From an uncultured archaeon (lineage in GTDB: Archaea; Asgardarchaeota; Lokiarchaeia; Sigyniarchaeales; SOKP01): 13,846 bases of DNA. The notes below the pieces were generated by a model, which saw only the letters and a list, made by a program, of their open reading frames with translations, searched no databases and was not told where the DNA came from. Numbering within the stretch: position 1 is the first letter of the stretch; each line of letters begins with the position of its first letter. The position numbers and the translations under genes are program-made. The DNA lies in assembly GCA_964632315.1 (NCBI GenBank), contig CAZWEM010000074.1:1-13846 (forward strand), written 5' to 3'. Shown in pieces: positions 869-13,846 of the stretch.

Positions 869-2383
869 TCAAGTGCCGCTTTGTGTGAGCAGCCGAAACA
901 CTCTTCTGAAGTTCTCCCGATGCCCCGATCTGAGGAAGTGGTCCGAGATCCAGAGACCGGTGAGGTAGACGGACAAGCCCGTTCCGGAGAGCAGCGCCAG
1001 CTCCCACGTTCCCGGCACGATGCCCCAGCGCTGCAGAGTCACGACGGCGGAGACAGCGACAAGCGCTGCGATGACCGGTGAGCTCAACATCCTCACCACT
1101 TCGGCGAGCCGAACCCCAGTCAGCCGCAGGAAGCGAGGCCATGTGTACAGTTGCGTGACGAGGGTCAGGAGGCGTGCGTAAACCGCCCCAAGAATACCAA
1201 ATCCTGCGACTAGAGGGACAAGGCCTAGGGCCAGCACGAGAATGTTGAGAAGCGAAGCCTTGGTCTGGATGTCTGGCCGTCCTGCGGCCAGGAACAGAGA
1301 CCCGAAGTTCGCGGTCAGAGATCGTACGGCTCCAGATATCAATAGGAGTTGGAAGGCGGGAATCATCGGCGCCCATTTCTCCCCAAGCACGAAACGGACG
1401 ATCTGGGGTGCGAGGGCGAGCAATCCAGCGGCGACCGGCAGCGACACCGTGGACACGAGACCCAGCGTGCGGAAAACCGCAGCGCGCAACCTCTCCCGAT
1501 CATCGCGCACCTTGGAGAAGGCGGGAAACGTAACCTGGGAGACCACGAGCGTGACCTCGGTTGCCGCCATCCCAGACATCCGCGAGGCCATGTTGTATAA
1601 ACCGAGAGAGCCCGCTTGCAGCATGCGTCCTACCACCGCGGTGTCCAAGCTCTGCACTAAGTAGTTGAGCACCCGGGTCGAAAAGACCCACTTGCCGTAA
1701 CGACCGAGCTCAAGGGCCAGCTCTCGTTTGAACCGGAGTCTCGGTCGAAAGGGATGAATCACCCACGACATAACGGTTTGGGTAAGCTGCGCCGCGAGAA
1801 ACCCCCAAGCCAACGCCCAAGCATTACGGAGCACGACGCCTGCGGCGATCGAAACCACCACGTCCGCCAGTGACGTCGCCAACTGGTAGATGGTCTGCTT
1901 GCGAAATTCCAAATCCTTCTGAAAGTAGACCACTCCGATGTTGGTGAGTCCGCGTACGAGCAGTCCCCCGGCGATTAGTCGCAACAACGGTGCGGCTCCG
2001 GGCTCTCTGAAGAACGTAGCGATCGTTGGGGCGGCTGCCACGAGGACTAGCGCCAGCAGCCAGTTGCGGACTATCTGGACAACCCACGCCGTGTCGAAAT
2101 AATCACTTATCTCATCGTCCGCCTTGTGAATGAGTGCAGCCTCGAACCCAGTCTGTGAAACCGTGTCTAGGAGGGTGAGCCCGAGGAGAGCGATCGCGAA
2201 CAGCCCGAAGTCATTGGGGGAGAGCAGCCGGGCCAGAACCACTGTTCTTGCGAAGGTGATGAACCGACCCAGCAGCCGCCCGACAAGGACCCAGACGCCG
2301 CTGCGAACGGCTTTCTCGGATACAGTGCCACTCGAGCCTACGAGGCCGTGCAGCAATCGGGCGAGGTCTCTGTAAATCGGCAC
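869..2383 (-). CDS. wzx: Wzx-type polysaccharide flippase (PST/MOP family, WzxC-like lipopolysaccharide biosynthesis protein)
   Basis: 504 aa with many hydrophobic segments. Signature stretches: 'VLARLLSPNDFGLFAIA', 'TGFEAALIHK', 'FQKDLEFRK', 'LGLYNMASR', 'VTFPAFSK', 'VLGEKWAP'. GGAG lies 9 nt upstream of the GTG start. Confidence 0.93.
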   Translation of the reverse strand: MPIYRDLARLLHGLVGSSGTVSEKAVRSGVWVLVGRLLGRFITFARTVVLARLLSPNDFGLFAIALLGLTLLDTVSQTGFEAALIHKADDEISDYFDTAWVVQIVRNWLLALVLVAAAPTIATFFREPGAAPLLRLIAGGLLVRGLTNIGVVYFQKDLEFRKQTIYQLATSLADVVVSIAAGVVLRNAWALAWGFLAAQLTQTVMSWVIHPFRPRLRFKRELALELGRYGKWVFSTRVLNYLVQSLDTAVVGRMLQAGSLGLYNMASRMSGMAATEVTLVVSQVTFPAFSKVRDDRERLRAAVFRTLGLVSTVSLPVAAGLLALAPQIVRFVLGEKWAPMIPAFQLLLISGAVRSLTANFGSLFLAAGRPDIQTKASLLNILVLALGLVPLVAGFGILGAVYARLLTLVTQLYTWPRFLRLTGVRLAEVVRMLSSPVIAALVAVSAVVTLQRWGIVPGTWELALLSGTGLSVYLTGLWISDHFLRSGHRENFRRVFRLLTQSGT

Positions 2384-2510: not shown

Positions 2511-4184
2511 TCACCGCCCGCCAGTCCTCCGGAGCACGGCATTCGCTGCTCGCCGAATCGAGGGAAGCGAGTTGGCAATCGAGGCTGCCCTCCGTTTCGC
2601 GGAGCCGAGCGCTGCGTTCCTGACAACGTGCAATCGACCTCGGACGCCCGTTGGCGGAAAGTTGTAGCGGGCACGGATCGCCGGATCGGTGAAGTCGGTG
2701 TCGAAGTGCTTGTACTGCACTCTGCCTGCTTCCACGCGAACCCCGCCCTGGGCCGCAAATGCCAGTACATTGTTACCTTCCAGCTCCCGGTAGCCGGCCT
2801 TGACCAGGTTCGCCACTCCATCCACCGTCGCCTCGCCGGCTCCTGGATACGGTCCGGGCCGCAGCAGCGGTCGGAAGTTACCTTGGTGGAGGTTACCGAA
2901 GATACATCGATAGCGACTGTAGGGGGGGAAGACGTTGGAGTCATATCCAACGTTGCCGACGTTGTCGACCACGAAGAAGTGGAGGCCCGAGTATGTCAGA
3001 TCTCCGGTATGGCGCTGCTGGTTGAGCATGTAGGCGATGCTGCCGTCGTCCATGAACCGAGCGACTAACCGACGCTGCTCATCGGTGTAGGCGCGGGGAT
3101 AGATTGCTCCCTTGTATCGTCCCTGGAAGCGCCTCAGGTGAACCGGGAATCCATGGCGGGCGAAGAAGGCGATGTCTTCCTCAAGGCGGTCCAGGAAAGG
3201 GGGATAGGCCACGTAGACTATCGGCACCTCGATTCCGTGCTCGCGGAGCAGCTGCGCCTTCGCAAGGAAGCTCTCCCGGTCGATGGTGAGGGGATGAAAG
3301 GACGCGTTGATGTGGAGCCGTCCGTCCCGTGCGAGCCGCGTGCGGACAATCTCCTCAACAGGACCCGCGATGTTGGTGGTCATGCGGAGCTGCCAGGCGG
3401 GCTCTGACGCGACCATGTCGAGGATGTCGAAGAACGCACCGCCAATGGAGGGCTCACCGAATGCGAGGTAGAGGATGAGTGCTTGATCTCCGAACGAGTT
3501 CTTGAACGACGCATGCCACTGCTCGATGGTCCCGAAGAAGGCATCCGAGGGATTCCAGAGGCCTACGTAATAGCAGTAGGGACAAGCGTAGTTGCACGTC
3601 GCTTCGCGGCCGTTGTATTGCCACAACACGGTGGTGTGACGCCGCGGCAGTACGTGGAGGAGGGTTTCGCACACGAGTTCATTGCCGGAGTCGTTGGGAT
3701 GAATGGCGTCACGCAGCCCACGCCGGGCCGGCCATATCTTGTCGCGCCAGACGGCATTGACGTCGGCGATCTTGACCCGTTTCTCGAATGCCAGCTCTCG
3801 AACTGCCTCGCTGTAGCTGTCCACCTCACGGTTGCTTGCGGCACGATGGCCCTCGGTCACAGGATTGAGGGTCATGGGAAGCACCCGCACCCCGGCAGCC
3901 ACAAACGCATCTATCATCCCACCGACGTTCCGTTTGTACTCGCTCCTGCTCACCCCCTTGCGCCAGTCATTCATCCCGAAGCAGATTACAGCTACGTCGG
4001 GTGCCGTGCCCACGACACTGTCGAGACGAGCCATCCCGTCCCGGGATGTCTCGCCCGAGATCCCGGCGTTGATGAGCTCGACACCCACCTCTGGCGCGTG
4101 CTCCTGCACTCGATGCTCTAGCTTTGACGCCGCGCCCTTTATGATCGAGTCACCGAAAAGCAGTATGCGACAAGGATTCTCCAC
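2511..4184 (-). CDS. fused SGNH/GDSL hydrolase (N-terminal) and radical SAM domain (C-terminal) protein, 557 aa
   Basis: All four SGNH blocks are present: FGDSII (4146-4154), NAGISGETS, CFGMNDW, DAIHPN (3699-3710). They are followed in frame by CNYACPYC (CxxxCxxC, 3573-3596), AFGEPS, MTTN and NASFHP. I moved the start from 4376 to GTG 4184 because the longer version overlaps the pyruvyl transferase by about 160 nt and GGAGG lies between that gene's stop and 4184. Confidence 0.9.
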   Translation of the reverse strand: MENPCRILLFGDSIIKGAASKLEHRVQEHAPEVGVELINAGISGETSRDGMARLDSVVGTAPDVAVICFGMNDWRKGVSRSEYKRNVGGMIDAFVAAGVRVLPMTLNPVTEGHRAASNREVDSYSEAVRELAFEKRVKIADVNAVWRDKIWPARRGLRDAIHPNDSGNELVCETLLHVLPRRHTTVLWQYNGREATCNYACPYCYYVGLWNPSDAFFGTIEQWHASFKNSFGDQALILYLAFGEPSIGGAFFDILDMVASEPAWQLRMTTNIAGPVEEIVRTRLARDGRLHINASFHPLTIDRESFLAKAQLLREHGIEVPIVYVAYPPFLDRLEEDIAFFARHGFPVHLRRFQGRYKGAIYPRAYTDEQRRLVARFMDDGSIAYMLNQQRHTGDLTYSGLHFFVVDNVGNVGYDSNVFPPYSRYRCIFGNLHQGNFRPLLRPGPYPGAGEATVDGVANLVKAGYRELEGNNVLAFAAQGGVRVEAGRVQYKHFDTDFTDPAIRARYNFPPTGVRGRLHVVRNAALGSAKRRAASIANSLPSIRRAANAVLRRTGGR

Positions 4185-4213
4185 CTGTGAGAGTCCACCC
4201 CTCCAACCGACCG

Positions 4214-5329
4214 CTACCTGACAAGCGCCAGCCACCTGTCCACGGCTGCTCGCACCCGCGAGCGGTGAGCCACGACGGCGCGGACGATGCTCGTCGACCG
4301 TGACGCGTAGGACCCGAAGGTCTCGCCCACGAGCATACCCAACTCCTCGTGGCTGAGCGACTCCAACGGGACACAAAAATGCTGCTCGCCAAGGTCAGTC
4401 ATGAATCCGTGCACTTTCGGCAAGTAGGAGAGACCGATCATGGGGACGCCCCGAACCGCCGCGAGGATCAACGAATGAAGGCGCATGCCGATCACCATGT
4501 CACAGTGGTCTAGGATCTCCAAGAACTCCCGCGCAGAGGGCGCCTCCGTGAGGAGTCGTGCCGCATCAGAGTGACGCATTTTGTCTATCACGCGCCGACA
4601 GACCGACACATCATCGTCGCCAGCGGTGACCCGCAGCGGAACAAATAGGAGGGTGGCACCCCGGTTGCGGATCGCCTCATCCGCGGTTCTCGCAACGGCC
4701 TGCAGCACAGCTTCGAACGCCCCTTCCGCCTCCACGAAGTGCCCCTTGGAATACCAATGCCGCATGCAGACCATGATCCGTGGTGGATCGGCCGGAGCCT
4801 TCCTAGCGGGAATATCTTCATCCCCTAGCAGCAGTGCGAGGTCGCCCGCCACGTGGATCTCACTTCCCACACCGATTTCGGTGAGCAAATCCCTAGAGCA
4901 GCAATCGCGCACGGTGAGGTCGTCAACTCCTTGCAGCCCCCGCGCAAGCTGACGCCGAGACTCGGGGAACCTGATGCTCTCAACACCGACGCAGGCGAGA
5001 GCTGTCGGTCGTCCCAGGCGACGGGCCAGTCGGAGGTTTGCCAGCCAGCCGCGGAGTGAGCTCGAGTCGATACCGTAGTCCTTCAACAACCCACCACCGC
5101 CGAGGAGGAAAAGGCGCGCGCCCAGGATCGCGCCGGCACGACGCGCCATGGAGGTCCGGCGCGAGTGAAGTGCAGACAGTCCACCTTGTCGACGCACCTC
5201 CCCCGGACGCATCGTGAACACCAGCGGCTGGACGGACGCCCGAGCGCGCAAGGCGCCCAGTAACGCTTCGAGAATTGCCTCGTCTCCGAGGTTGCCGTGA
5301 CCGTAAAAACCCTCGATGACGACCTTCAT
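4214..5329 (-). CDS. polysaccharide pyruvyl transferase family protein (CsaB/WcaK-like)
   Basis: Motifs GFYGHGNLGDEAIL, LLGGGGLLKD, LTVRD, GMRLHSLILAAVRGVPMIGLSYLPKV are characteristic of PS_pyruv_trans proteins. Confidence 0.93.
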   Translation of the reverse strand: MKVVIEGFYGHGNLGDEAILEALLGALRARASVQPLVFTMRPGEVRRQGGLSALHSRRTSMARRAGAILGARLFLLGGGGLLKDYGIDSSSLRGWLANLRLARRLGRPTALACVGVESIRFPESRRQLARGLQGVDDLTVRDCCSRDLLTEIGVGSEIHVAGDLALLLGDEDIPARKAPADPPRIMVCMRHWYSKGHFVEAEGAFEAVLQAVARTADEAIRNRGATLLFVPLRVTAGDDDVSVCRRVIDKMRHSDAARLLTEAPSAREFLEILDHCDMVIGMRLHSLILAAVRGVPMIGLSYLPKVHGFMTDLGEQHFCVPLESLSHEELGMLVGETFGSYASRSTSIVRAVVAHRSRVRAAVDRWLALVR

Positions 5330-5388
5330 CTGGACCCAGAGCCTTCCTGCGTCTGATCAGGCGGCGTTTATCATCGCGAATGGATCGC

Positions 5389-5435
5389 GTGCTGCCTCGC
5401 CCCCATCCCATCTACAATACTCGAGACGCGAGGTG
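5389..5435 (+). promoter_or_regulatory. possible sigma70-type -10 element and RBS in the divergent intergenic region
   Basis: TACAAT at 5413-5418 and GAGGTG at 5430-5435 precede ATG 5445. No convincing -35 element. The region 5330-5444 lies between two divergent starts, so promoters are expected here. Confidence 0.3.
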
Positions 5436-5444
5436 CTGATCGGC

Positions 5445-6509
5445 ATGCGATGCGCTTTAGTGGAGCTCAACCCCTTTCACCGCGAGACGCTGCCGACGTT
5501 CGTTCTGCTCTTGAATCAGCTCGGCGTCACCGTCGACGTTTTTGCGCGCGGGGATACGCTCTCCCGGCGCCCTTTCGCACCATGCCCAAGTCTCCGCTAC
5601 AAGGCTCATTCGATCGACGACCTGCCGATGAAGCTGTGGTTCGAACTCCGCCGACTCGCCGGCTACGATTTCGTCGTTGCCAACTCTGTCGAACCGGTCT
5701 GGATCCTCCGGAAGCTGGCCCGGTTCCAGGTCCCGATCATCGGGGTGGTCCACAACTCGGTCCTGATGCTCGAGGATCCGGAGTACCAGGCCTTCTTTTC
5801 GCCCGCGTCGCGGCGCCCGCTGGTCCTCGCACCTCACATCGCGTCGTGGCTTGGGGGTCGCGCAGCAGTCAGTTGGGTGGCGCCGGTGCACGTGACGGAG
5901 GATCTTCGTCTCGACACGGCGAGAAATGACTGGCTCTGTGTCCAAGGCACAATCGACTTCAGACGCCGCAACTACGGATCGCTGATAGTGGCGGCTAGTG
6001 AGCTTGAGGCTGCGGGTGTGCCAAGCTTTTCCGCCATCGTCGTCGGAAAGGACTCTCACCTCGACGGTATGCGATTCCGGAGGGAGGTAGCGCGGCGGGG
6101 TCTGGAGAAGATCATCGTACTCGATGGCGAGAAGTTCGGCTACGACGACTATCTCGAGGCCGTCATGACAGCCGCATTCATTCTGCCCCTGGTTGACTCA
6201 ACCTCGCTCTTGTTCCAGCCATACTTCGGAGAGAAGGTCACATCGTCACTTTCCATGGCGCTCGCCACCGCGCGCATTCCGGTGGTCCACGCGGCGATCG
6301 CGAGGCTCTACGGGATCGAGGGAATGGCCGTGACGTACGAGGACGGAGGCCTGTGCGACGCCATCCGCCGCGCCATGGCTCTCCCAACCGATGAACGGGG
6401 AGAGATGATATCCGGCCTCCGGGAGTGCCGCGCGTCACTCCTCAGGAACTCCCTCAGCAATCTGAGGGCCGTCATGGAGGACCTCGCCCTCGACCCACGC
6501 CGACGGTGA
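5445..6509 (+). CDS. putative divergent GT-B fold glycosyltransferase (354 aa)
   Basis: Start moved from 5316 to ATG 5445 (GAGGTG 9 nt upstream; 5316 overlaps the divergent gene). Two Rossmann-like halves are suggested by 'LNQLGVTVDVF', 'YDFVVAN', 'PIIGVVHN', 'LCVQGTIDFRRRNY', 'AIVVGK' and 'SSLSMALATARIPVVH'. The canonical GT4 Ex7E motif is absent. Confidence 0.6.
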   Translation: MRCALVELNPFHRETLPTFVLLLNQLGVTVDVFARGDTLSRRPFAPCPSLRYKAHSIDDLPMKLWFELRRLAGYDFVVANSVEPVWILRKLARFQVPIIGVVHNSVLMLEDPEYQAFFSPASRRPLVLAPHIASWLGGRAAVSWVAPVHVTEDLRLDTARNDWLCVQGTIDFRRRNYGSLIVAASELEAAGVPSFSAIVVGKDSHLDGMRFRREVARRGLEKIIVLDGEKFGYDDYLEAVMTAAFILPLVDSTSLLFQPYFGEKVTSSLSMALATARIPVVHAAIARLYGIEGMAVTYEDGGLCDAIRRAMALPTDERGEMISGLRECRASLLRNSLSNLRAVMEDLALDPRRR

Positions 6510-6611
6510 CAAGTTGCCGAGGAGAACTGCCCTGAAACGGCCGCGCGTGACACTTGCCGGCGGAAAGGAACGCCAGTCGACCACGGGAGGTTGCGGTCAT
6601 CTGGGGACTAC

Positions 6612-7547
6612 GTGCCGCGCGACCCACTGGGCACCGGCCGCGGTGACGGAACCGGAAAGGCGGGCAGGTTGCAGCCCCTTGTGAGCATCGTCGTCCCCGT
6701 CCGTAACGATCCCATCGGCGTCCGGAGATGTGTGGGGGCGTTGCGGCGTCAATCCTACTCCCGCGAATGTCTCGAGATCCTGGTCGTCGACAACGATTCC
6801 ACGAACGACACCTGGGAGGTGATTTGCGAGCTGGGCGTCAAGGCGCTGCGCGAGACGTCGGTTCGGAACTCCTATGCCGCAAGGAATCGCGGGCTGGCGG
6901 AGTCCAGCGGCGACGTCCTGGCCTTCACCGACGCCGACTGCGTGCCTCACGAGCGATGGGTGGAGGCCGGCGTGCGCTCGCTGCTCGACGAGGGGGCGCA
7001 CCTAGCAGGTGGCCGGGTGCGCTTCGATCTCGGGTTCAAGCCGACTGGCGCCGAGATCTGGGACTCGATCACCAACATGCAGATGGCCGACAGTATCCGT
7101 GCGCGTGGGGTGGCCAAGACCGCCAATCTGTTCGTTCGACGAGAGGTTGTCGATGCCATCGGTGCTTTCCCCACGGCAGCACCCTCCGGCGGCGACGTCG
7201 CATGGACGGCACGCGCGACGGCGGCTGGATTTCGACTCGTGTATGCAGCCGATGCGGAGGTTCGCCATCCCACACGCCGCCTCGGGGCTCTCGTGCGGAA
7301 ACAGATGCGGGTCGGCGTCGGGCAGGCCTCGCTGCTCGGCGCCGCGGCCGGCACACGGCAGGCTGTCTCCCTGCTGATGCCCTTGCGGCCGTCAGAACTT
7401 CGCGCCAGATTGCGCGCTAAGGGTCAAGAGGTGTCTTCGGCGAACACGCTGCGGGTGTGGACGGCGGCATCGATCTGCCGTGCGGCGACCGCCGCCGGGA
7501 TCCTGTTCGGCCTTCCGCGCCTGCGTTCCGAGGAGACCGACGGGTGA
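6612..7547 (+). CDS. glycosyltransferase family 2 (resembles haloarchaeal AglI-type GT2)
   Basis: Motifs VSIVVPVRNDP, ILVVDNDS, SYAARNRGL, AFTDADC (DxD), TANLFVR, SGGD and VRHP. The start is uncertain: TTG 6591, GTG 6612 and TTG 6669 are all in frame. Confidence 0.9.
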   Translation: MPRDPLGTGRGDGTGKAGRLQPLVSIVVPVRNDPIGVRRCVGALRRQSYSRECLEILVVDNDSTNDTWEVICELGVKALRETSVRNSYAARNRGLAESSGDVLAFTDADCVPHERWVEAGVRSLLDEGAHLAGGRVRFDLGFKPTGAEIWDSITNMQMADSIRARGVAKTANLFVRREVVDAIGAFPTAAPSGGDVAWTARATAAGFRLVYAADAEVRHPTRRLGALVRKQMRVGVGQASLLGAAAGTRQAVSLLMPLRPSELRARLRAKGQEVSSANTLRVWTAASICRAATAAGILFGLPRLRSEETDG

Positions 7548-8635
7548 GGCTCGCCGACGTGATCGAGGCGACCGCGGAGGCCGGTCTGGTTCTGCAGCGG
7601 TCAGACGGCTCGTTCCCGGCAGGGCACAACGGCCCCTATGACGATGCGGAGACACCTCTGCGCAACACGGCCCACTGGATCGTGACCGTGCTCAAGGCTT
7701 ACGAGCTGAACGGGAACGCGTCGTTCCGCGAGGCGGCGCGGCGCGCCAGCAACATCCTGCTGGCGCCTGATGCGCGCCCCAGTGGGGCGACCTTCCTCTG
7801 TCGGACCAACCCCGCGAAGGACTCCGCCAACGGACTGATCGGGCAGGCGTGGGTCATGGAGGCCCTGGTGGAGCTGCACCGGGTGCTCGGCGACGATCGT
7901 GCACGCGAGGTCGCCGCCCAGGTCTTCCTCCTCCACCCTTTCTCGCCAGTCGGGGGCCTGTGGCGCCGCGTCGACGTGGATGGGAGCCTCCTCACCGTCG
8001 ACCCCACCTTCAACCACCAGCTCTGGTTCGCGGCGGCCGGAGCCCTGCTCGACCCGACCGGGGACACGGAGATCGGAGACCGCGCTGGTCGGTTCCTGGA
8101 CGGAGCCCTTGCCCAGACCTTCGCGGTGCGCCGCACAGGGAGGATCCGGCACGAGGCTGTCCAGCCGTGGCTGGCCCGAGCCAGGGGCCTCCTGGTTGGT
8201 CTCAAGTACCCTCGGACGCGCCTCAAGCAGAGGCGGGCCCAGGATGCCCGGGAGGTGGGCTACCACGCCTTCAACCTGTACGCCTTCGCCATCCTCCACC
8301 GCTGGCGGCCCGAGCATCCCCTGTGGCGGTCCCGTCGCTTCCTGCGTGCACTGCGCTTCGTGGCCCGAGGAGGGCTCGCCGGAGCACTCTCCAACCCCTT
8401 CGGCGGCCCGTACAACCCGGTGGGATTCGAGGCGGCGCTCGCCATCGAGACGTTCCAGCCGCTGCTGTCGGTCCGCCTCGGTTCGCCGGTGGAGTGGATC
8501 GAACGCCAGCTCGAGCACACCTTCGACGCTTCCAGCAACCTGATGAACCGCAACACGCCGGATCCTCAGACCCTCGCCGCCAGGTTCTACGAGCTGACCC
8601 GGCTGCGGGCGACCGACATGTTCATCGAGCTGTGA
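7544..8635 (+). CDS. aglQ: AglQ-like protein (putative alpha/alpha-barrel sugar epimerase or isomerase), 363 aa
   Basis: GTG 7544 overlaps the GT2 stop (GTGA), with GAGGAG 8 nt upstream. Motifs AEAGLVLQRSDGSFPAGHNGPY.D.ETPLRNTAHW, NGLIGQAW..EAL, VFLLHPF, DPTFNHQLWFAA, GYHAFNLYA, PYNPVGFE and AARFYELTRL match, from memory and end to end, Haloferax volcanii AglQ. Confidence 0.85.
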   Translation: MRLADVIEATAEAGLVLQRSDGSFPAGHNGPYDDAETPLRNTAHWIVTVLKAYELNGNASFREAARRASNILLAPDARPSGATFLCRTNPAKDSANGLIGQAWVMEALVELHRVLGDDRAREVAAQVFLLHPFSPVGGLWRRVDVDGSLLTVDPTFNHQLWFAAAGALLDPTGDTEIGDRAGRFLDGALAQTFAVRRTGRIRHEAVQPWLARARGLLVGLKYPRTRLKQRRAQDAREVGYHAFNLYAFAILHRWRPEHPLWRSRRFLRALRFVARGGLAGALSNPFGGPYNPVGFEAALAIETFQPLLSVRLGSPVEWIERQLEHTFDASSNLMNRNTPDPQTLAARFYELTRLRATDMFIEL

Positions 8636-8649
8636 GAGGGCCGACCGGT

Positions 8650-9603
8650 TCAGAGCCGGCATAGGTCCCGACACGAGCCCGCGGCACGGACGACCTTGGC
8701 CATCCAGACGACGAACCATGCTCCGACCAGACGCGCCGCGGGCAGCCGGCCGACCCGCCGCCGAGCCCGCGCCGGCAAGCGGTGCGGGGGCATGGGCAGG
8801 AAGCTTCGCGCGGCGGCCAACGCCATCTTCGGGGGCTTCATCCCGAAGGCCGCCCACACCCCAGGGGTCCCCCGACCGACCCGGTACTGCTTGCGTAGCA
8901 GCGCACCGAGACGGCGGGCCGGGTACGAGACCACCGCGCTCGGTGCGTAGACGAGGGTGAACCCGGCATCGGTCGCCCGCCGGGTCCAGCGCATGTCGCC
9001 TCCGGAGCGGAGACGGGCATCGAAGGGCCCGATCGCCTCTAACACGCGTTGGCGCACGAAGAGGTTGCAGGTCATGCAGGCGCGATGAGCTTCGATGCTG
9101 GCCTCCGCGTCCACATTGAGGATTGCGTCCGCAATCTCTCCCAGAGTGGGAGGGTCGGACGTGGCGAAGGCGGACTGCCCGCCAGCCAGGTCCGCACCGT
9201 GCTCGCGGAGTGCCTCCACGCCGCGCTCAATCCAGTCGGCTGCGGGCACGCAGGTGCCGTCGGTGAAGGCGACGATCTCGCCCCGCGCCATGGCCAGTCC
9301 GGCGTTGCGGGCGGCGTAGGGACTGCGTACCGTGTCCTCCCTCAGCAGGGTGACAGGATACCGGGCAATGACATCCCGTGTTGCGTCTCGGGAGCCGTTG
9401 TCCACCACGATGATCTGGGTATCGGCCCGGGAGTAGGTCTGGGCCAACAGACCCTCCAGGCAGGCCTGGATGGCAGGTGCCGCGTCGAGCACGGGCACCA
9501 CCACGGACACCGACGGCAGCTGCACGCCATCCATCTGCTCCATCATACGGGCCTGTGTCTCAGACGGCTCGGCACCGGTCGAGCCGGTGCGATGCCGGCT
9601 CAT
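8650..9603 (-). CDS. glycosyltransferase family 2, paralog of 6612-7547, with non-canonical DxD (317 aa)
   Basis: Start moved from 9987 to ATG 9603 (ATGA overlap with the upstream stop; ATG 9546 is an alternative). Motifs VSVVVPV, IIVVDNGSRDAT, PYAARNAGL, AFTDGTC, TCNLFVR and SGGD. Confidence 0.88.
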   Translation of the reverse strand: MSRHRTGSTGAEPSETQARMMEQMDGVQLPSVSVVVPVLDAAPAIQACLEGLLAQTYSRADTQIIVVDNGSRDATRDVIARYPVTLLREDTVRSPYAARNAGLAMARGEIVAFTDGTCVPAADWIERGVEALREHGADLAGGQSAFATSDPPTLGEIADAILNVDAEASIEAHRACMTCNLFVRQRVLEAIGPFDARLRSGGDMRWTRRATDAGFTLVYAPSAVVSYPARRLGALLRKQYRVGRGTPGVWAAFGMKPPKMALAAARSFLPMPPHRLPARARRRVGRLPAARLVGAWFVVWMAKVVRAAGSCRDLCRL

Positions 9604-10871
9604 GGCGGCGCTGCGAGCTCGAGCCCCGCCGCCGCGAGGGCATGAAGGAAACGAGGACGGACGGACTCTTCGCTGAACTGCCGAGGGGGTTCGACCTTGG
9701 CGTCGGGCTGCGCGCACCGGGCGAGAAAACGGGCCACCACGACACCCGCCTCCGAGGAGTCGGGGGCCAGGGTCCACACCTGGGAGAGCGTGCGGGTCGC
9801 CTCCCAGACGGCGCTGCCCCGGGGCGCGACCGCCAGGATGGGCCGGCCCGAGGGCAGGTACTCGAACAGCTTGGCCGGCAGCGACGCCGTGGAGGAGGAC
9901 AGCAGCAGCAGGCCGTCCGCGGCCCGGATCAGCTCCAGGATCGCGGCCCGGTCCACCGGCGGTCGCAGCTCCAGCTCCCAGCCCCACGCTGCCAGCCGCG
10001 GGCGCCAGGCGGCAACCGCCGCCCGTTCCTCGGCGAGCAGGTTGCCCACCACGAGCACCCGGCCGCGGGGTCCCGCCCCGGCCTCGATGCCATCCAGCAG
10101 GGGCCTGAACAAATCCTCCACGCGGCGCTCGGCGCGGGAGCCGAAGAACTTGCCTGCGTACAGCAGGGTCAGGGGATCGTCCGGTCTCCGGCGTTGCTCA
10201 CCAGTGGAGGCATCCATGACTTTCGGGTAGCAGTTGGTCACCACCGAGACCTTGTCCGCGACCCACGGCAGCCGCTCGGCGAGCAGCCGCCACCAGGCTT
10301 CGGAGGTCACCAGGACGCCCTCGGCCTGCCGCAACAGGCGGGCTTCCAGCCGCCGGTGCCGCAGCCGCTGCAGTGCCAGGGTGTTCAGCAGCGGGATCAC
10401 GGGCTCGTCCAGCCAGCCGTCGCGCAGATCCATCACGAACGGTGCCTGGAGACGGCGTGCCAGCCCCGCCCCGGCCACGTGCACCGACTCCGGCGGGCTC
10501 GAGGCGAGGACCATGGAGGCGCTGCGCCCTGCTTCCAGAGCCAGGGGATGTTTCGCCGCCCTGCGCGCCCACGCCACCAAGGGGTCCGGCACCATCAGCA
10601 GGTAGGCGACGGTGCGGCGCAGGCGGTTGGTGGTCCGGGGCGGGAGCGCCGCCCGCCGGCCGGGAGGTGGATCGGAGAAGAAGCCGATCGGGTCCCGGAT
10701 CGTGACCACCTGCCCGAAGCTCGTGCCCTCCACACCATCCCGGGATCCGGCCCGCAGGACCAGGCTCCCCACCCCCTCCTCGCCGAGCCAGCGCACGAAA
10801 CGCTCGACGCGGGTCCAGCCGAGGTGGCCGGGCTGGCCCCAGTAGGGCGCCGGGATCACGACGCGCTTCAC
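9600..10871 (-). CDS. glycosyltransferase family 4-like (GT-B)
   Basis: Motifs APYW, VPDPLVAW, ASSPPESVH, MDLRDGW, VVTNCY, LLYAGKF, ADGLLL and LPAKLFEYLPSGRPILAV. The GTG start overlaps the upstream TGA (GTGA). Confidence 0.88.
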   Translation of the reverse strand: MKRVVIPAPYWGQPGHLGWTRVERFVRWLGEEGVGSLVLRAGSRDGVEGTSFGQVVTIRDPIGFFSDPPPGRRAALPPRTTNRLRRTVAYLLMVPDPLVAWARRAAKHPLALEAGRSASMVLASSPPESVHVAGAGLARRLQAPFVMDLRDGWLDEPVIPLLNTLALQRLRHRRLEARLLRQAEGVLVTSEAWWRLLAERLPWVADKVSVVTNCYPKVMDASTGEQRRRPDDPLTLLYAGKFFGSRAERRVEDLFRPLLDGIEAGAGPRGRVLVVGNLLAEERAAVAAWRPRLAAWGWELELRPPVDRAAILELIRAADGLLLLSSSTASLPAKLFEYLPSGRPILAVAPRGSAVWEATRTLSQVWTLAPDSSEAGVVVARFLARCAQPDAKVEPPRQFSEESVRPRFLHALAAAGLELAAPP

Positions 10872-12712
10872 GGATTGCCGTCCCGCGGCGCGGCCACCGG
10901 CCCCTCGCCGAGCACACCCTCGAGCTCACGGACGTGTCCGGGGGGCGCTTCGAGGAGGTCCCGCTCATAGGCGGACAGCCTGCGGCCGGCCCCCAACCGA
11001 GCCGCGTCGCGCGCCCGCTCAAGCGCGTCTCGAGCCGCTTGGCTGCGCCCGAGATCCAGCTCGACACGGCTGATGAACAGCCAGCCACGGACGAAGTGCG
11101 GCTCCTCCCGGACCGCTCTCTGCGCCAGCTCGAGGGCCCGTGAGGAGTCCCCGAGCATGCGTTCGAGCTGGGCCCAGCGCAGCCAGGACCACGGGAGATG
11201 GGGCTCGAGCTCCGTCGCCCGCCGGTACCCCTTCCTGGCGCCGGCGATGGCGTCAGGCCAGCCTCCGAGGTCCTCCACGATGCGGGCGTTCACGAGACCG
11301 TAGTTCGACCACACGCGGGCGCTGCCGCCGTGGAGTGCGGTCGCCCGCCGGCTCCAGCTCAAGGCCTCTCCGGCCGTCTCCCAGCCCCAGCGCGGCTCAG
11401 CCAGGAGGTGGCGGGTGGCCCACTCCGCGGGCTCCGCGAACCAGGGATCCGCGCGCAGGCTCGTCCGCGCCAGGTCCGTGCTGGAGGTACCCTCCCACCA
11501 GAGCCGGCGAGCGTAGGCCGGCTCCGCCGCTCCCCACAGCAGAAGCCACATCACCGCCAGCCCCGCCGCCAACCGCACGCCTGGCCGCGCGGGCCACCTT
11601 CTCGCGGACTCCGCCTGGATCTGGCCGGTCGCCGGGAGCAGGCTTCCGACCAGCAGCGCCCACGTCCAGAGCACGACACCCTGGTCCAGGAAGTCGTGGA
11701 ACAGCGCCATGACGGCCAGAGCCGCCAGGGCCACGACGCCGGCCCGCCGTTGCTCGAGCCCCTGCCGGCGCAGCTGCCAATACCCCAGAAAGATCGCCGC
11801 CGCAGCCAGGGCAGCGCCGACGATCCCCGTCCGCACCGCCAACCCGAGGACCGTCGATTCCGCGCTGCCGATGACGTGCTGGTGAATGGCGATGGCCTCC
11901 GGGCGGGCCAGCCGCACCACCCCCGTGGCGTCCTCGAGCCAGCCCGGCCCCACGCCGAGCACGGGGTGAGCGGCCGTTAGGCTGCCCACCGCACGCCAGA
12001 TGGCGGGCCGATACCACGCCAGCGCATCCGGATGGGAGAGGAAGCGCCAGGTCGCGATCGCCGCCGCACCGGCCGCGGTGCCCGCCAACCCCAACCACCG
12101 CAACCGCCCCCGAGGGAACGCGACCGCCGCGGCCGCCACCAGGGCCAGGAGGCCGGCTCGTGAGCCTGTCGCCGCGATCGCCGCCGTCGCCAACAGGGCC
12201 GGCAACCAGCGCCAGCGCCCGAGGCTCCTCCCGACGTCGGACCACGGCACGGCGAGAGCGGGGATGACGAGCGCGATGGCCACGTTCGGGTTGCGGTACA
12301 TTCCGCCGAGGCCCAGCGCCCCCGCGGCCAGATTCGCCCCCAGCACCCAAGCCGCCGTCAGGCCCGCGCCGGCCGCCACCAGGGCGAAGGCCGCGCCGCG
12401 AGCCTTCCTGCCGCTGTGGCGGGCGAGCACGAGGATCGCCCACGCCGCAAGCCAGGTGGTGACCGTCTCCTTGGCGCCCATGGGATATCGCTTCGCCACC
12501 ACGGCGGACACCACCGCCCAGCCCAACACTCCGAGGCCCAGCCACTCCGCCGTCGTCAGGTGGTCCCGCCAGGTTGCAGCCGCCCAACCGACGATGACGG
12601 CCAGGGCAGCCGTGACGACGAGCCGCGGGGTCGGTGCGAAGGCGCCCCCCCAGGCGGTCGCGACGAGCACGAGCGCCGCCGCCGCGATCGCGGCGCGGTC
12701 AGTTCCGCGCAT
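10868..12712 (-). CDS. O-antigen ligase-like (Wzy_C) membrane protein with C-terminal TPRs
   Basis: Multi-TM N-terminus with GGMYRNPN, TGSRAGLLAL, RPAIW...HPVLGVGPG and AVRTGIVG. About three TPR-like repeats at the C-terminus (YRRATELEPHLPWSW, AQRAVREEPHFVRGW). ATG 12712 has GAGG 9 nt upstream; GTG 12718 is an alternative start. Confidence 0.82.
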   Translation of the reverse strand: MRGTDRAAIAAAALVLVATAWGGAFAPTPRLVVTAALAVIVGWAAATWRDHLTTAEWLGLGVLGWAVVSAVVAKRYPMGAKETVTTWLAAWAILVLARHSGRKARGAAFALVAAGAGLTAAWVLGANLAAGALGLGGMYRNPNVAIALVIPALAVPWSDVGRSLGRWRWLPALLATAAIAATGSRAGLLALVAAAAVAFPRGRLRWLGLAGTAAGAAAIATWRFLSHPDALAWYRPAIWRAVGSLTAAHPVLGVGPGWLEDATGVVRLARPEAIAIHQHVIGSAESTVLGLAVRTGIVGAALAAAAIFLGYWQLRRQGLEQRRAGVVALAALAVMALFHDFLDQGVVLWTWALLVGSLLPATGQIQAESARRWPARPGVRLAAGLAVMWLLLWGAAEPAYARRLWWEGTSSTDLARTSLRADPWFAEPAEWATRHLLAEPRWGWETAGEALSWSRRATALHGGSARVWSNYGLVNARIVEDLGGWPDAIAGARKGYRRATELEPHLPWSWLRWAQLERMLGDSSRALELAQRAVREEPHFVRGWLFISRVELDLGRSQAARDALERARDAARLGAGRRLSAYERDLLEAPPGHVRELEGVLGEGPVAAPRDGNP

Positions 12713-13846
12713 CGCCACCCGCCTCGAGCCGATCCAGCAGATCCGCGAGCGCGGTGGCGCGCTCCCTCACGCGCGGCTGCTCCACGGCCGCCTGCCAGGC
12801 GTCGCTCACCGCCGACGGCGCGTGGCCGAGCGCCAGCTCCAGCCGGCTGGCTAGCGCGGCCAGGGAAGCCGACCTGGGCCGGAGCCACCGCACATCGTCC
12901 AGGACCTCCAGGGCCCCCCGCTCCAGCTCCACGCGTCCGCTCTGCAGGGCCGCGGTCCCCGCGGCTGTCACCGGCGGGAGTCGCCACGGCGCAAGGTTCG
13001 CGGCACGGACGGCGACTGCGTACCTGGCCGCCGGATCGGTCGCAACGACGCTCCCGACGACGACGCTCGTGAGGTGCAGCAGGGAGAGACCGACCGCCAG
13101 CGAAGTGGCTCCCAACGCCGCCAGACGCAGGCGAGGGTGATCGGCGGGGCCGGGCGCCGTCGCGCGCACCATCGCGACGCCCCAACCCACGAGCACGGCC
13201 CAGGGCAGCGCCACTCCGCTGCTGTAGAAAGAGAAGTCCACAAGGTTGGCGAGAGGGATCACCGCGATGGCCGCCGTCAGCGCCGGCGCGCGGGGCCACA
13301 ACCGTCGCAGCAACCGTCCCAGAGCGAGCGCCGCCGCCACCGCCAGCAGGATACCGACCACACCGAGCTCGGCCGCCCACTCAAGGGGCATACAGTGGGC
13401 GTGAGCCGGCACGTTGCCCACCGCGAAAGGTACCGCGCGGGCAGCCTGCCCGAACCCGCCCACTCCCACCCCGGTCAGCGGCGCCTCAGACCACACCCAG
13501 GCGGCGGTGCGCCAGTTGTCGGCGCGCAGGGCGAGGGGCTCCAGCTTGGCGAGGTCGGGCCTGGACACGAAGGCGCCCGCCAGAGCCGCCGCGAGCAGAG
13601 CCACCACGACGACAGCGACGAGGCTCCGCCTCCGACCCGGGACCACGACCAGACACGTGCCCATGCCGAGGGCGATGCCCACGGGCGAGTAGGTGAGGGC
13701 CAGCCCCAGCCCGCACAACGCCGCCGCCGCCCCCCATGCCAGGCCTTCCCGAGAGCGGCGCACACCGGCCACGAGCAGGGGAAGTGCCGTCGCCAGCAGG
13801 GCGGCCAGGTGGCCGGGCACCAGCAGCGACGCGAAGGCGCGGCCGC
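12699..13846 (-). CDS. O-antigen ligase-like (Wzy_C) membrane protein with TPR-like tail; 5' end outside the window
   Basis: The frame stays open past 13820 to the window edge (GRAFASLLVPGHLAALL, the typical RAFxxxxxPxHLA segment). Also LTYSPVG, LRADNW...APLTGVGVGGF, PAHAHCMPLEWAAELGVVG and NLVDFSF, followed by a TPR-like helical tail. Confidence 0.85.
   Translation of the reverse strand, partial: GRAFASLLVPGHLAALLATALPLLVAGVRRSREGLAWGAAAALCGLGLALTYSPVGIALGMGTCLVVVPGRRRSLVAVVVVALLAAALAGAFVSRPDLAKLEPLALRADNWRTAAWVWSEAPLTGVGVGGFGQAARAVPFAVGNVPAHAHCMPLEWAAELGVVGILLAVAAALALGRLLRRLWPRAPALTAAIAVIPLANLVDFSFYSSGVALPWAVLVGWGVAMVRATAPGPADHPRLRLAALGATSLAVGLSLLHLTSVVVGSVVATDPAARYAVAVRAANLAPWRLPPVTAAGTAALQSGRVELERGALEVLDDVRWLRPRSASLAALASRLELALGHAPSAVSDAWQAAVEQPRVRERATALADLLDRLEAGGDARN

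Follow-up and report, generated by a model that had tools for sequence, protein, structure and literature searches.

The question raised by this locus is why a polysaccharide gene cluster should carry an SGNH hydrolase joined in one polypeptide to a radical S-adenosylmethionine (SAM) enzyme, and what the two domains might do together. The gene is located on the minus strand of contig CAZWEM010000074.1, binned with the Asgardarchaeota assembly GCA_964632315.1 (class Lokiarchaeia); the whole stretch of 13,846 nucleotides is hereafter called the window. The fusion had been singled out in a sequence-only reading of the window, which suggested a possible two-step tailoring enzyme encoded between a pyruvyl transferase and a Wzx flippase. 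Our analyses point to an answer in three parts, to which, taken together, we assign a probability of roughly 0.6: the protein belongs to an uncharacterised, widespread cytoplasmic family that serves as accessory partner of the pyruvyl transferases of family PF04230, the two acting on one sugar; it is soluble or peripherally membrane-bound, its SGNH domain being an active esterase that is held rigidly against a radical SAM domain with one cluster; and fusion protein and transferase together constitute a two-gene glycan-decorating module, mobile between Wzx/Wzy-type and ATP-binding cassette (ABC) transporter-type loci.

A protein search over 5.8 billion sequences, clustered at 90% identity, returned about 130 clusters sharing the full-length architecture (510-590 aa, 37-71% identity), whose named homologs are annotated merely as 'GDSL-type esterase/lipase family protein'. 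The family gene was found at 38 loci among the GTDB species representatives, a few of them contig-end fragments, and these are spread over several orders of Archaea and more than 12 phyla of Bacteria. The bacterial hosts comprise Victivallales, Campylobacterota, Elusimicrobiota, Zixibacteria, WOR-3, Cloacimonadota, Thermotogota, Planctomycetota, Chloroflexota, Desulfobacterota, Spirochaetota and Lachnospiraceae, and the archaeal ones Methanosarcinales, Methanophagales, Halobacteria and Woesearchaeota. Literature searches returned no description of the architecture or of its pairing with a pyruvyl transferase, in agreement with the earlier statement that no characterised enzyme is known to be built in this way. 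The two domains are known, as is the general idea of radical SAM tailoring of sugars; neither the fusion, nor the clade that carries it, nor its near-obligate partner was known from the literature searched.

The pairing with the transferase was evaluated with a PF04230 hidden Markov model built from the neighbours in Pfam-annotated loci and run over every fetched locus. A conserved PF04230 neighbour was detected at 33 of the 39 distinct family loci included in this count. In 25 of them the two genes lie on the same strand no more than 100 bp apart, often with an overlap of 3-13 nt and with the transferase either upstream or downstream, and in eight they lie on the same strand at a distance of 1-8 kb. 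In five of the remaining loci the contig stops at the fusion gene or immediately next to it, and a single locus with full flanks (L022) is devoid of a PF04230 gene. All the Pfam-annotated neighbourhoods that were examined turned out to be glycan loci with PF04230 nearby, and the homologs are nearly always fused and nearly always located in glycan loci. With the junction continuous in the homologs and no characterised family of this build in the literature searched, none of the three grounds for rejection named in the sequence-only reading applies. When 34 tabulated loci of distant radical SAM or weak partial relatives were inspected for PF04230, none contained it (0/34). Five host genomes of 1.4-7.3 Mb encode only one to three PF04230 proteins each, one of which is always the neighbour of the fusion. 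Whereas PF04230 genes are common and were present in 9/14 control genomes, the fusion is a rarity, so that the dependence runs in a single direction, from fusion to transferase, and this would be the pattern of an enzyme that uses the product of the transferase. The near-obligate neighbourhood across phyla considerably strengthened the link to a pyruvylated substrate that had been suggested from the window only.

The partner family keeps putative catalytic residues. Residues D16, R141, R283 and H285 are invariant among 25 partners, and alignment of the partner profile with Pvg1p (PDB 5ax7) mapped D16 and R283 onto D106 and R337, which are the proposed catalytic residues of that enzyme (PMC4872226). 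The similarity matrices of fusion and partner proteins showed a weak correlation (Mantel rho 0.31, 2/2000 permutations), which is inflated by host kinship. A predicted complex of the fusion protein with the pyruvyl transferase returned a score of 0.00 and is uninformative for or against binding. The module is found beside Wzm/Wzt, an ABC transporter with a Wzt_C domain, in at least five loci and beside Wzx in at least four; its presence in loci of both export types indicates that it acts before export. In the window the pyruvyl transferase gene ends 29 bp upstream of the fusion start on the same strand, and the identity of both flanking genes, as originally named, was upheld by their Pfam scores (Table 1). 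The same order of fusion gene and wzx occurs at L085, the locus of the closest relative.

The fusion itself was then considered, as two genes that are separate in reality might have been joined by a frameshift, by faulty assembly or in a contig of chimeric origin. The contig is indeed mis-binned and shows a step in guanine plus cytosine (GC) content from about 62% to about 75%, both of which would fit such an artefact. On the other hand, the junction is conserved and the alignment colinear across it in over 120 independent homologs drawn from many assemblies, L085 keeps the gene order, including the gene for a family 2 glycosyltransferase (GT2) across the GC step, and the full-length protein gave a confident model with a predicted local distance difference test (pLDDT) value of 91.9 and a predicted template modelling score (pTM) of 0.89. 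Because the family is colinear across many assemblies, this explanation is effectively refuted and retains a negligible probability. The alignment is conserved through the junction (VPR..TTVLWQYNGREAKCNY) in sets of both 50 and 127 sequences, so that the region around position 3640, where an interruption might have been sought, is continuous in the homologs. The frame of the window is likewise single and uninterrupted, with the motifs of both domains complete, as claimed. The enclosing open reading frame (ORF) extends over 2511..4376 on the minus strand, which the sequence-only reading had left unmentioned, and the GTG at 4184 was taken as the start; the resulting N-terminus, VENPCRI (with V read as M), corresponds to MENPCKI in the homologs and supports this choice. 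The catalytic Ser lies as early as residue 13 and leaves a signal peptide no space, which confirmed another element of the earlier description.

The N-terminal half matched Pfam Lipase_GDSL_2 over residues 9-170 (E 7.7e-26, 92.1 bits against a cut-off of 32.9). Block II is represented by G41 and Block III by GMND at residues 70-73, while the remaining blocks are listed in Table 1. Foldseek comparisons returned the esterases Axe2, TesA and LAE5 with E values of about 1e-10-1e-11 and template modelling (TM) scores of 0.73-0.76, and a three-layer alpha/beta/alpha fold is supported by the match with Axe2 (E 3e-11, TM 0.74) and with many other SGNH esterases. Sequence matches to solved SGNH esterases and TesA were obtained by phmmer with E values of 1e-7 to 1e-9, and the nearest relatives of solved structure are TesA and esterases that deacetylate sugars. 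Axe2 from Geobacillus stearothermophilus (PDB 3w7v/4jj4) and TesA thus have the fold and the catalytic blocks in common with this domain; unlike the family described here, they are stand-alone proteins of about 200 aa with roles in degradation or lipid metabolism and without a radical SAM fusion. Axe2 is an intracellular sugar deacetylase. Across the family alignment S13 is retained in 120/124, H162 in 122/126 and D159 in 117/126 members, the triad being kept in about 95% overall.

Searches with the full-length model retrieved SGNH esterases exclusively, and the radical SAM half was therefore modelled separately (residues 183-525, pLDDT 94). Pfam Radical_SAM (PF04055) scored 20.2 bits on the window protein, under the gathering cut-off of 29.5, and several homologs carry PF04055 at E 1e-5 or better. 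Invariant in 127 aligned members are the Cys triad, GEP, N271 and H297, and the radical SAM motifs are lost in none of them (0/127); GEP, at residues 243-245 after a strand at 235-240, is the SAM-binding motif of GGE type. Among the Foldseek matches of the model were anSME, SuiB, BlsE, viperin, DesII and BtrN, with AbmM also present. VIA gave the highest score to BlsE (PDB 7vob; Z 17.1, root-mean-square deviation 3.6 A, 274 residues aligned, 14% identity), with SkfB at 15.3, anSME at 14.8 and MoaA at 14.0, and SkfB, anSME, SuiB, MoaA and viperin lying overall between 13 and 15. A profile search against the PDB reached at best an E value of 0.0015, for anSME, and did not match BlsE 7vob. As judged from the predicted fold and the motifs, which settle the matter despite the Pfam score, this half of the protein is a divergent member of the radical SAM superfamily. 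Its best curated family match was STM4011 (NCBIfam NF038073; E 1.3e-9, model positions 5-151), a family that to our knowledge is uncharacterised; the scores of 36.6-37.8 bits against a cut-off of 200 bits indicate that the fusion is not a member. Look-up in the protein atlas returned generic 'radical SAM' clusters and nothing more specific.

The search for auxiliary-cluster cysteines in the alignment revealed none conserved beyond the triad, the best two columns containing Cys in 42/127 and 49/127 members. The domain is therefore expected to hold a single [4Fe-4S] cluster and no SPASM/twitch site, and the family lacks the auxiliary Fe-S cysteines that define the class of anSME, BtrN and SuiB. 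This result also bears on a possible role in the modification of peptides, either as a maturase of proteins or in the synthesis of peptides made on the ribosome and modified after translation (RiPPs). Such a role would account for the high rank of anSME, SuiB, SkfB and CteB among the fold matches (Z 13.6-15.3), but besides the absence of the auxiliary cysteines no precursor peptide or RiPP recognition element was seen in the surroundings and the annotated neighbourhoods are all glycan loci, which makes a peptide substrate extremely improbable. The nearest fold, BlsE, points instead to radical chemistry of the sugar type, as do the matches with DesII, BtrN, AbmM and viperin.

The pLDDT and pTM of the full-length model, combined with the short conserved linker, suggest that the SGNH and radical SAM domains are held in a fixed mutual arrangement. 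The basic amphipathic C-terminal tail noticed earlier was also recovered: residues 508-557 carry a net charge of +11 with an 18-residue hydrophobic moment of 0.61, and helices are predicted, with low pLDDT, at 513-537 and 541-554. The tail has a charge of at least +4 in 103/127 members and is nearly absent in 21/127.

Table 1. Coordinates of the fusion gene, of its domains and motifs and of the two flanking genes in the window.
Feature	Position	Strand	Basis and details
SGNH hydrolase-radical SAM fusion gene	2511..4184	minus	557 aa, GTG start, stop 2511-2513; ORF translation
SGNH/GDSL hydrolase domain, residues 1-176	3657..4184	minus	PF13472; triad Ser13-Asp159-His162
SGNH Block I GDS, residues 11-13	4146-4154	minus	translation
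SGNH Block V DAIH, residues 159-162	3699-3710	minus	translation
Linker, residues 177-183, short, conserved	3636..3656	minus	alignment and translation
Radical SAM core and C-terminal subdomain, residues 183-510	2655..3638	minus	model, fold comparison
CxxxCxxC motif CNYACPYC, residues 197-204	3573..3596	minus	translation; kept in 127/127 members
Basic C-terminal tail, residues 511-557, predicted helical, family-variable	2514..2654	minus	model and charge
Partner PF04230 polysaccharide pyruvyl transferase, 371 aa	4214..5329	minus	Pfam PS_pyruv_trans 99.7 bits against a cut-off of 25.3
Wzx-type flippase gene	869..2383	minus	Pfam Polysacc_synt_3, 276 bits; 127 bp downstream of the fusion gene

Several observations weigh against the proposed partnership on one sugar. 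L022 has full flanks and yet is without PF04230. The partners fall into three size classes of low mutual identity, so that no single co-evolving partner clade can be recognised. In about 7% of the members a triad residue is replaced and every radical SAM motif is nevertheless kept, hence certain lineages can do without the esterase step. No acetyltransferase able to make the substrate of the esterase occurs among the recurrent gene clusters of the loci, and neighbourhood in glycan loci can reflect co-inherited tailoring cassettes instead of a common substrate. The main rival explanation is accordingly an independent tailoring enzyme of the epimerase or dehydratase type that travels with the transferase: the radical SAM domain would epimerise, dehydrate or oxidise another sugar or a nucleotide-sugar precursor, as in BlsE, DesII, viperin or NeoN, the SGNH domain would trim an acetyl group, and the transferase would be a mere neighbour in the cassette. 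The structural neighbours of the family, which are radical enzymes acting on small-molecule sugars, the location of the fusion gene at L022 amid other radical SAM genes, the 1-8 kb that separate the partners in eight loci and the different partner sizes are all in keeping with this explanation. It does not account for same-strand adjacency within 100 bp in 25/39 loci of hosts with one to three PF04230 genes, nor for the fact that among the other neighbour clusters a broad family 4 glycosyltransferase (GT4) alone is as widespread (29 loci), Wzx, Wzt and an aminotransferase occurring in 4-9 loci each. We regard independent tailoring as rather unlikely. Around the fusion gene at L022 (4924-13828) lie three other radical SAM genes, two of the SPASM type and one B12-binding, together with genes for a methyltransferase and a GNAT.

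The replaced triad residues and the missing acetyltransferase raise the further possibility that the SGNH domain is not an esterase. It might be an acyl transferase, a substrate-binding or docking module, or a lipid-acting enzyme of the lysophospholipase or thioesterase kind at the membrane, leaving the radical SAM domain as the sole source of glycan chemistry. The sequence matches to TesA, acyl-CoA thioesterase I / lysophospholipase L1, the loss of the nucleophile or His in several members and the basic tail would agree with this view. Triad and oxyanion residues are however kept in about 93-97% of the members, in structure the domain comes closest to acetyl esterases of carbohydrates, Axe2 among them, and at one locus (L087) deacetylases of carbohydrate esterase family 4 (CE4) are found in place of the SGNH domain; a non-esterase role is thus improbable. 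In that locus (6001-10408), the only one in which an SGNH-less relative lies on a long contig, a member of 406 aa is followed by PS_pyruv_trans and then by two CE4 genes (Polysacc_deac_1), which in this single case may stand in for the esterase domain without being homologous to it. Members with a replaced triad residue (nucleophile, His or Asp) include P0057, P0100, P0102 and P0128.

If fusion and transferase do act on one sugar, a scheme can be outlined. Before export, the PF04230 transferase would equip one sugar of the lipid-linked glycan with an (enol)pyruvyl group derived from phosphoenolpyruvate (PEP). The radical SAM domain would generate a 5'-deoxyadenosyl radical and abstract a hydrogen from the same sugar or from its pyruvyl or enolpyruvyl substituent, and the SGNH domain would hydrolyse an ester on that residue, most likely an O-acyl group, either exposing the acceptor hydroxyls or finishing the product. 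The outcome would be a pyruvate-derived decoration other than a plain ketal. More specifically, and only as a tentative proposal that is more doubtful than the partnership itself and in our estimate unlikely, transferase and fusion might make an undescribed pyruvate-derived sugar decoration on a lipid-linked polysaccharide, for instance by a PolH-like C-C cyclisation or by decarboxylation or rearrangement of the ketal. By analogy with PolH, a higher-carbon bicyclic sugar acid could arise if an intermediate with an enolpyruvyl group or a pyruvyl ketal were attacked by the radical.

A biochemical parallel is offered by the octosyl acid route of PolA/PolH/PolJ (NikO/NikJ/NikL), which consists of an enolpyruvyl transfer from PEP, a radical SAM step and a hydrolase; PolH cyclises 3'-enolpyruvyl-uridine monophosphate and the hydrolase PolJ follows (PMC5365060). 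The route has the same logic as the one proposed here and provides a precedent for radical SAM chemistry on PEP-derived substituents of sugars, but it employs a phosphatase as hydrolase, a nucleotide substrate and separate proteins, in contrast with the fused SGNH esterase of this family. Its transferase is MurA-like and is not known to belong to PF04230. BlsE, which the radical SAM half resembles most in structure, is a soluble enzyme of blasticidin S biosynthesis whose substrate, cytosylglucuronic acid, is a sugar acid (PMC3715490). The likeness is one of fold at 14% identity: BlsE has no SGNH domain, does not lie beside a PF04230 gene and serves the synthesis of a nucleoside antibiotic, whereas the fusion family sits in polysaccharide loci. 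As for the partner, the transferase of the window is a clear member of the family of Pvg1p, CsaB and WbbZ; none of the literature searched describes those enzymes as requiring an SGNH-radical SAM protein or as having one encoded alongside. WbbZ belongs to a system in which pyruvate caps an O antigen exported by an ABC transporter (PMC10629545), and by analogy a modified pyruvate cap at the Wzt-linked loci is a matter of speculation.

The literature searched contained no enzyme acting on the pyruvate groups of a glycan after the pyruvyl transferase. On cell-surface glycans such groups determine the charge, serve to anchor S-layer proteins and distinguish antigenic types. Should the proposed undescribed decoration be real, it would involve the first radical SAM step known on a pyruvylated glycan. 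To radical SAM enzymology the family would add a further clade, one with a single cluster and a polymeric carbohydrate as substrate. The pair occurs, among others, in the isolates Desulfosarcina alkanivorans PL12 (L029) and Pseudodesulfovibrio sp. JC047 (L002). The mobile two-gene module spans gut Lachnospiraceae, sulfate reducers, methanogens and Asgard-related archaea, which implies a sugar modification so far unrecognised in many anaerobes, and the two proteins, being defined and open to testing, offer a way of finding that modification.

The origin of the contig was also investigated. The contig is a binning contaminant in the Asgard metagenome-assembled genome (MAG) and not archaeal DNA, and its host is a high-GC bacterium. 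Its GC content is 67% against 32.9% for the bin, in which the 95th percentile of 2-kb windows is 37.6%; the bin contains 17 contigs (125 kb) above 45% GC and has a contamination of 8.6%. The right half of the window matches, with 99.96% identity, one end of a contig of 69.5 kb and 70-75% GC from MAG GCA_964576825.1. Since this matching contig also carries a type II secretion pseudopilin and a lytic transglycosylase (SLT), in addition to Wzm/Wzt, the host is to be placed among the Bacteria.

The GC step is located at about 6680, with values of 61-63% to the left and 70-76% to the right, and the left 6.6 kb hold wzx, the fusion gene, the pyruvyl transferase and a GT4-like gene. L089, an independent metagenome contig, is 99.87% identical to the window from 13677 down to 6671 and unrelated beyond, while at L085, with 62% GC, nucleotide similarity is lost at 6691 and the gene order is kept across the step. 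The breakpoint (about 6671-6691) falls within the first approximately 30 codons of the GT2 gene (6591-7547). The left part of the window looks like a swapped glycan cassette of the serotype type, joined within the 5' portion of GT2, and not like one side of a chimeric contig.

Some variants of the architecture were encountered within the family. A class I SAM methyltransferase is added at the C-terminus in three-domain proteins of 870-884 aa (L018:10001-12655, P0099 and P0124), and this was the sole extra domain among close relatives in the best 150 representatives. A search for Rosetta-stone fusions longer than 975 aa found none, which is weak evidence. Stand-alone radical SAM forms are rare (P0131, P0134). 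L086 was considered as a split gene, but its upstream ORF of 207 aa is not an SGNH domain and the locus was assigned to the rare stand-alone forms. At L085 (5321-6274) and on the contig of P0007, a stand-alone radical SAM gene of 317-339 aa lies between the fusion gene and wzx; its product is a paralog of the radical SAM half of the fusion (hhalign 99.6%, 26% identity). The window does not contain this paralog and has the 127-bp gap in its place.

Finally, the other genes of the window were inspected. The GT4-like gene at 5316-6509 (plus strand) probably starts at the ATG at 5445 (MRCALVE...), as judged from 49% identity to the L085 homolog; this start would leave a divergent intergenic region of 115 bp before the pyruvyl transferase gene instead of an overlap. 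A Pfam scan of alternative long ORFs in the high-GC half of the window gave only a weak GT4 match. The region 7457-8635 (plus strand) encodes a protein of 363-392 aa without a Pfam match, for which gene calling in L089 likewise gave a gene. At 10868-13820 on the minus strand, two Wzy_C proteins similar to O-antigen ligases or polymerases are encoded in tandem; the first bears a C-terminal TPR array, and metagenomes commonly contain relatives of this TPR form, with identities of about 50%.

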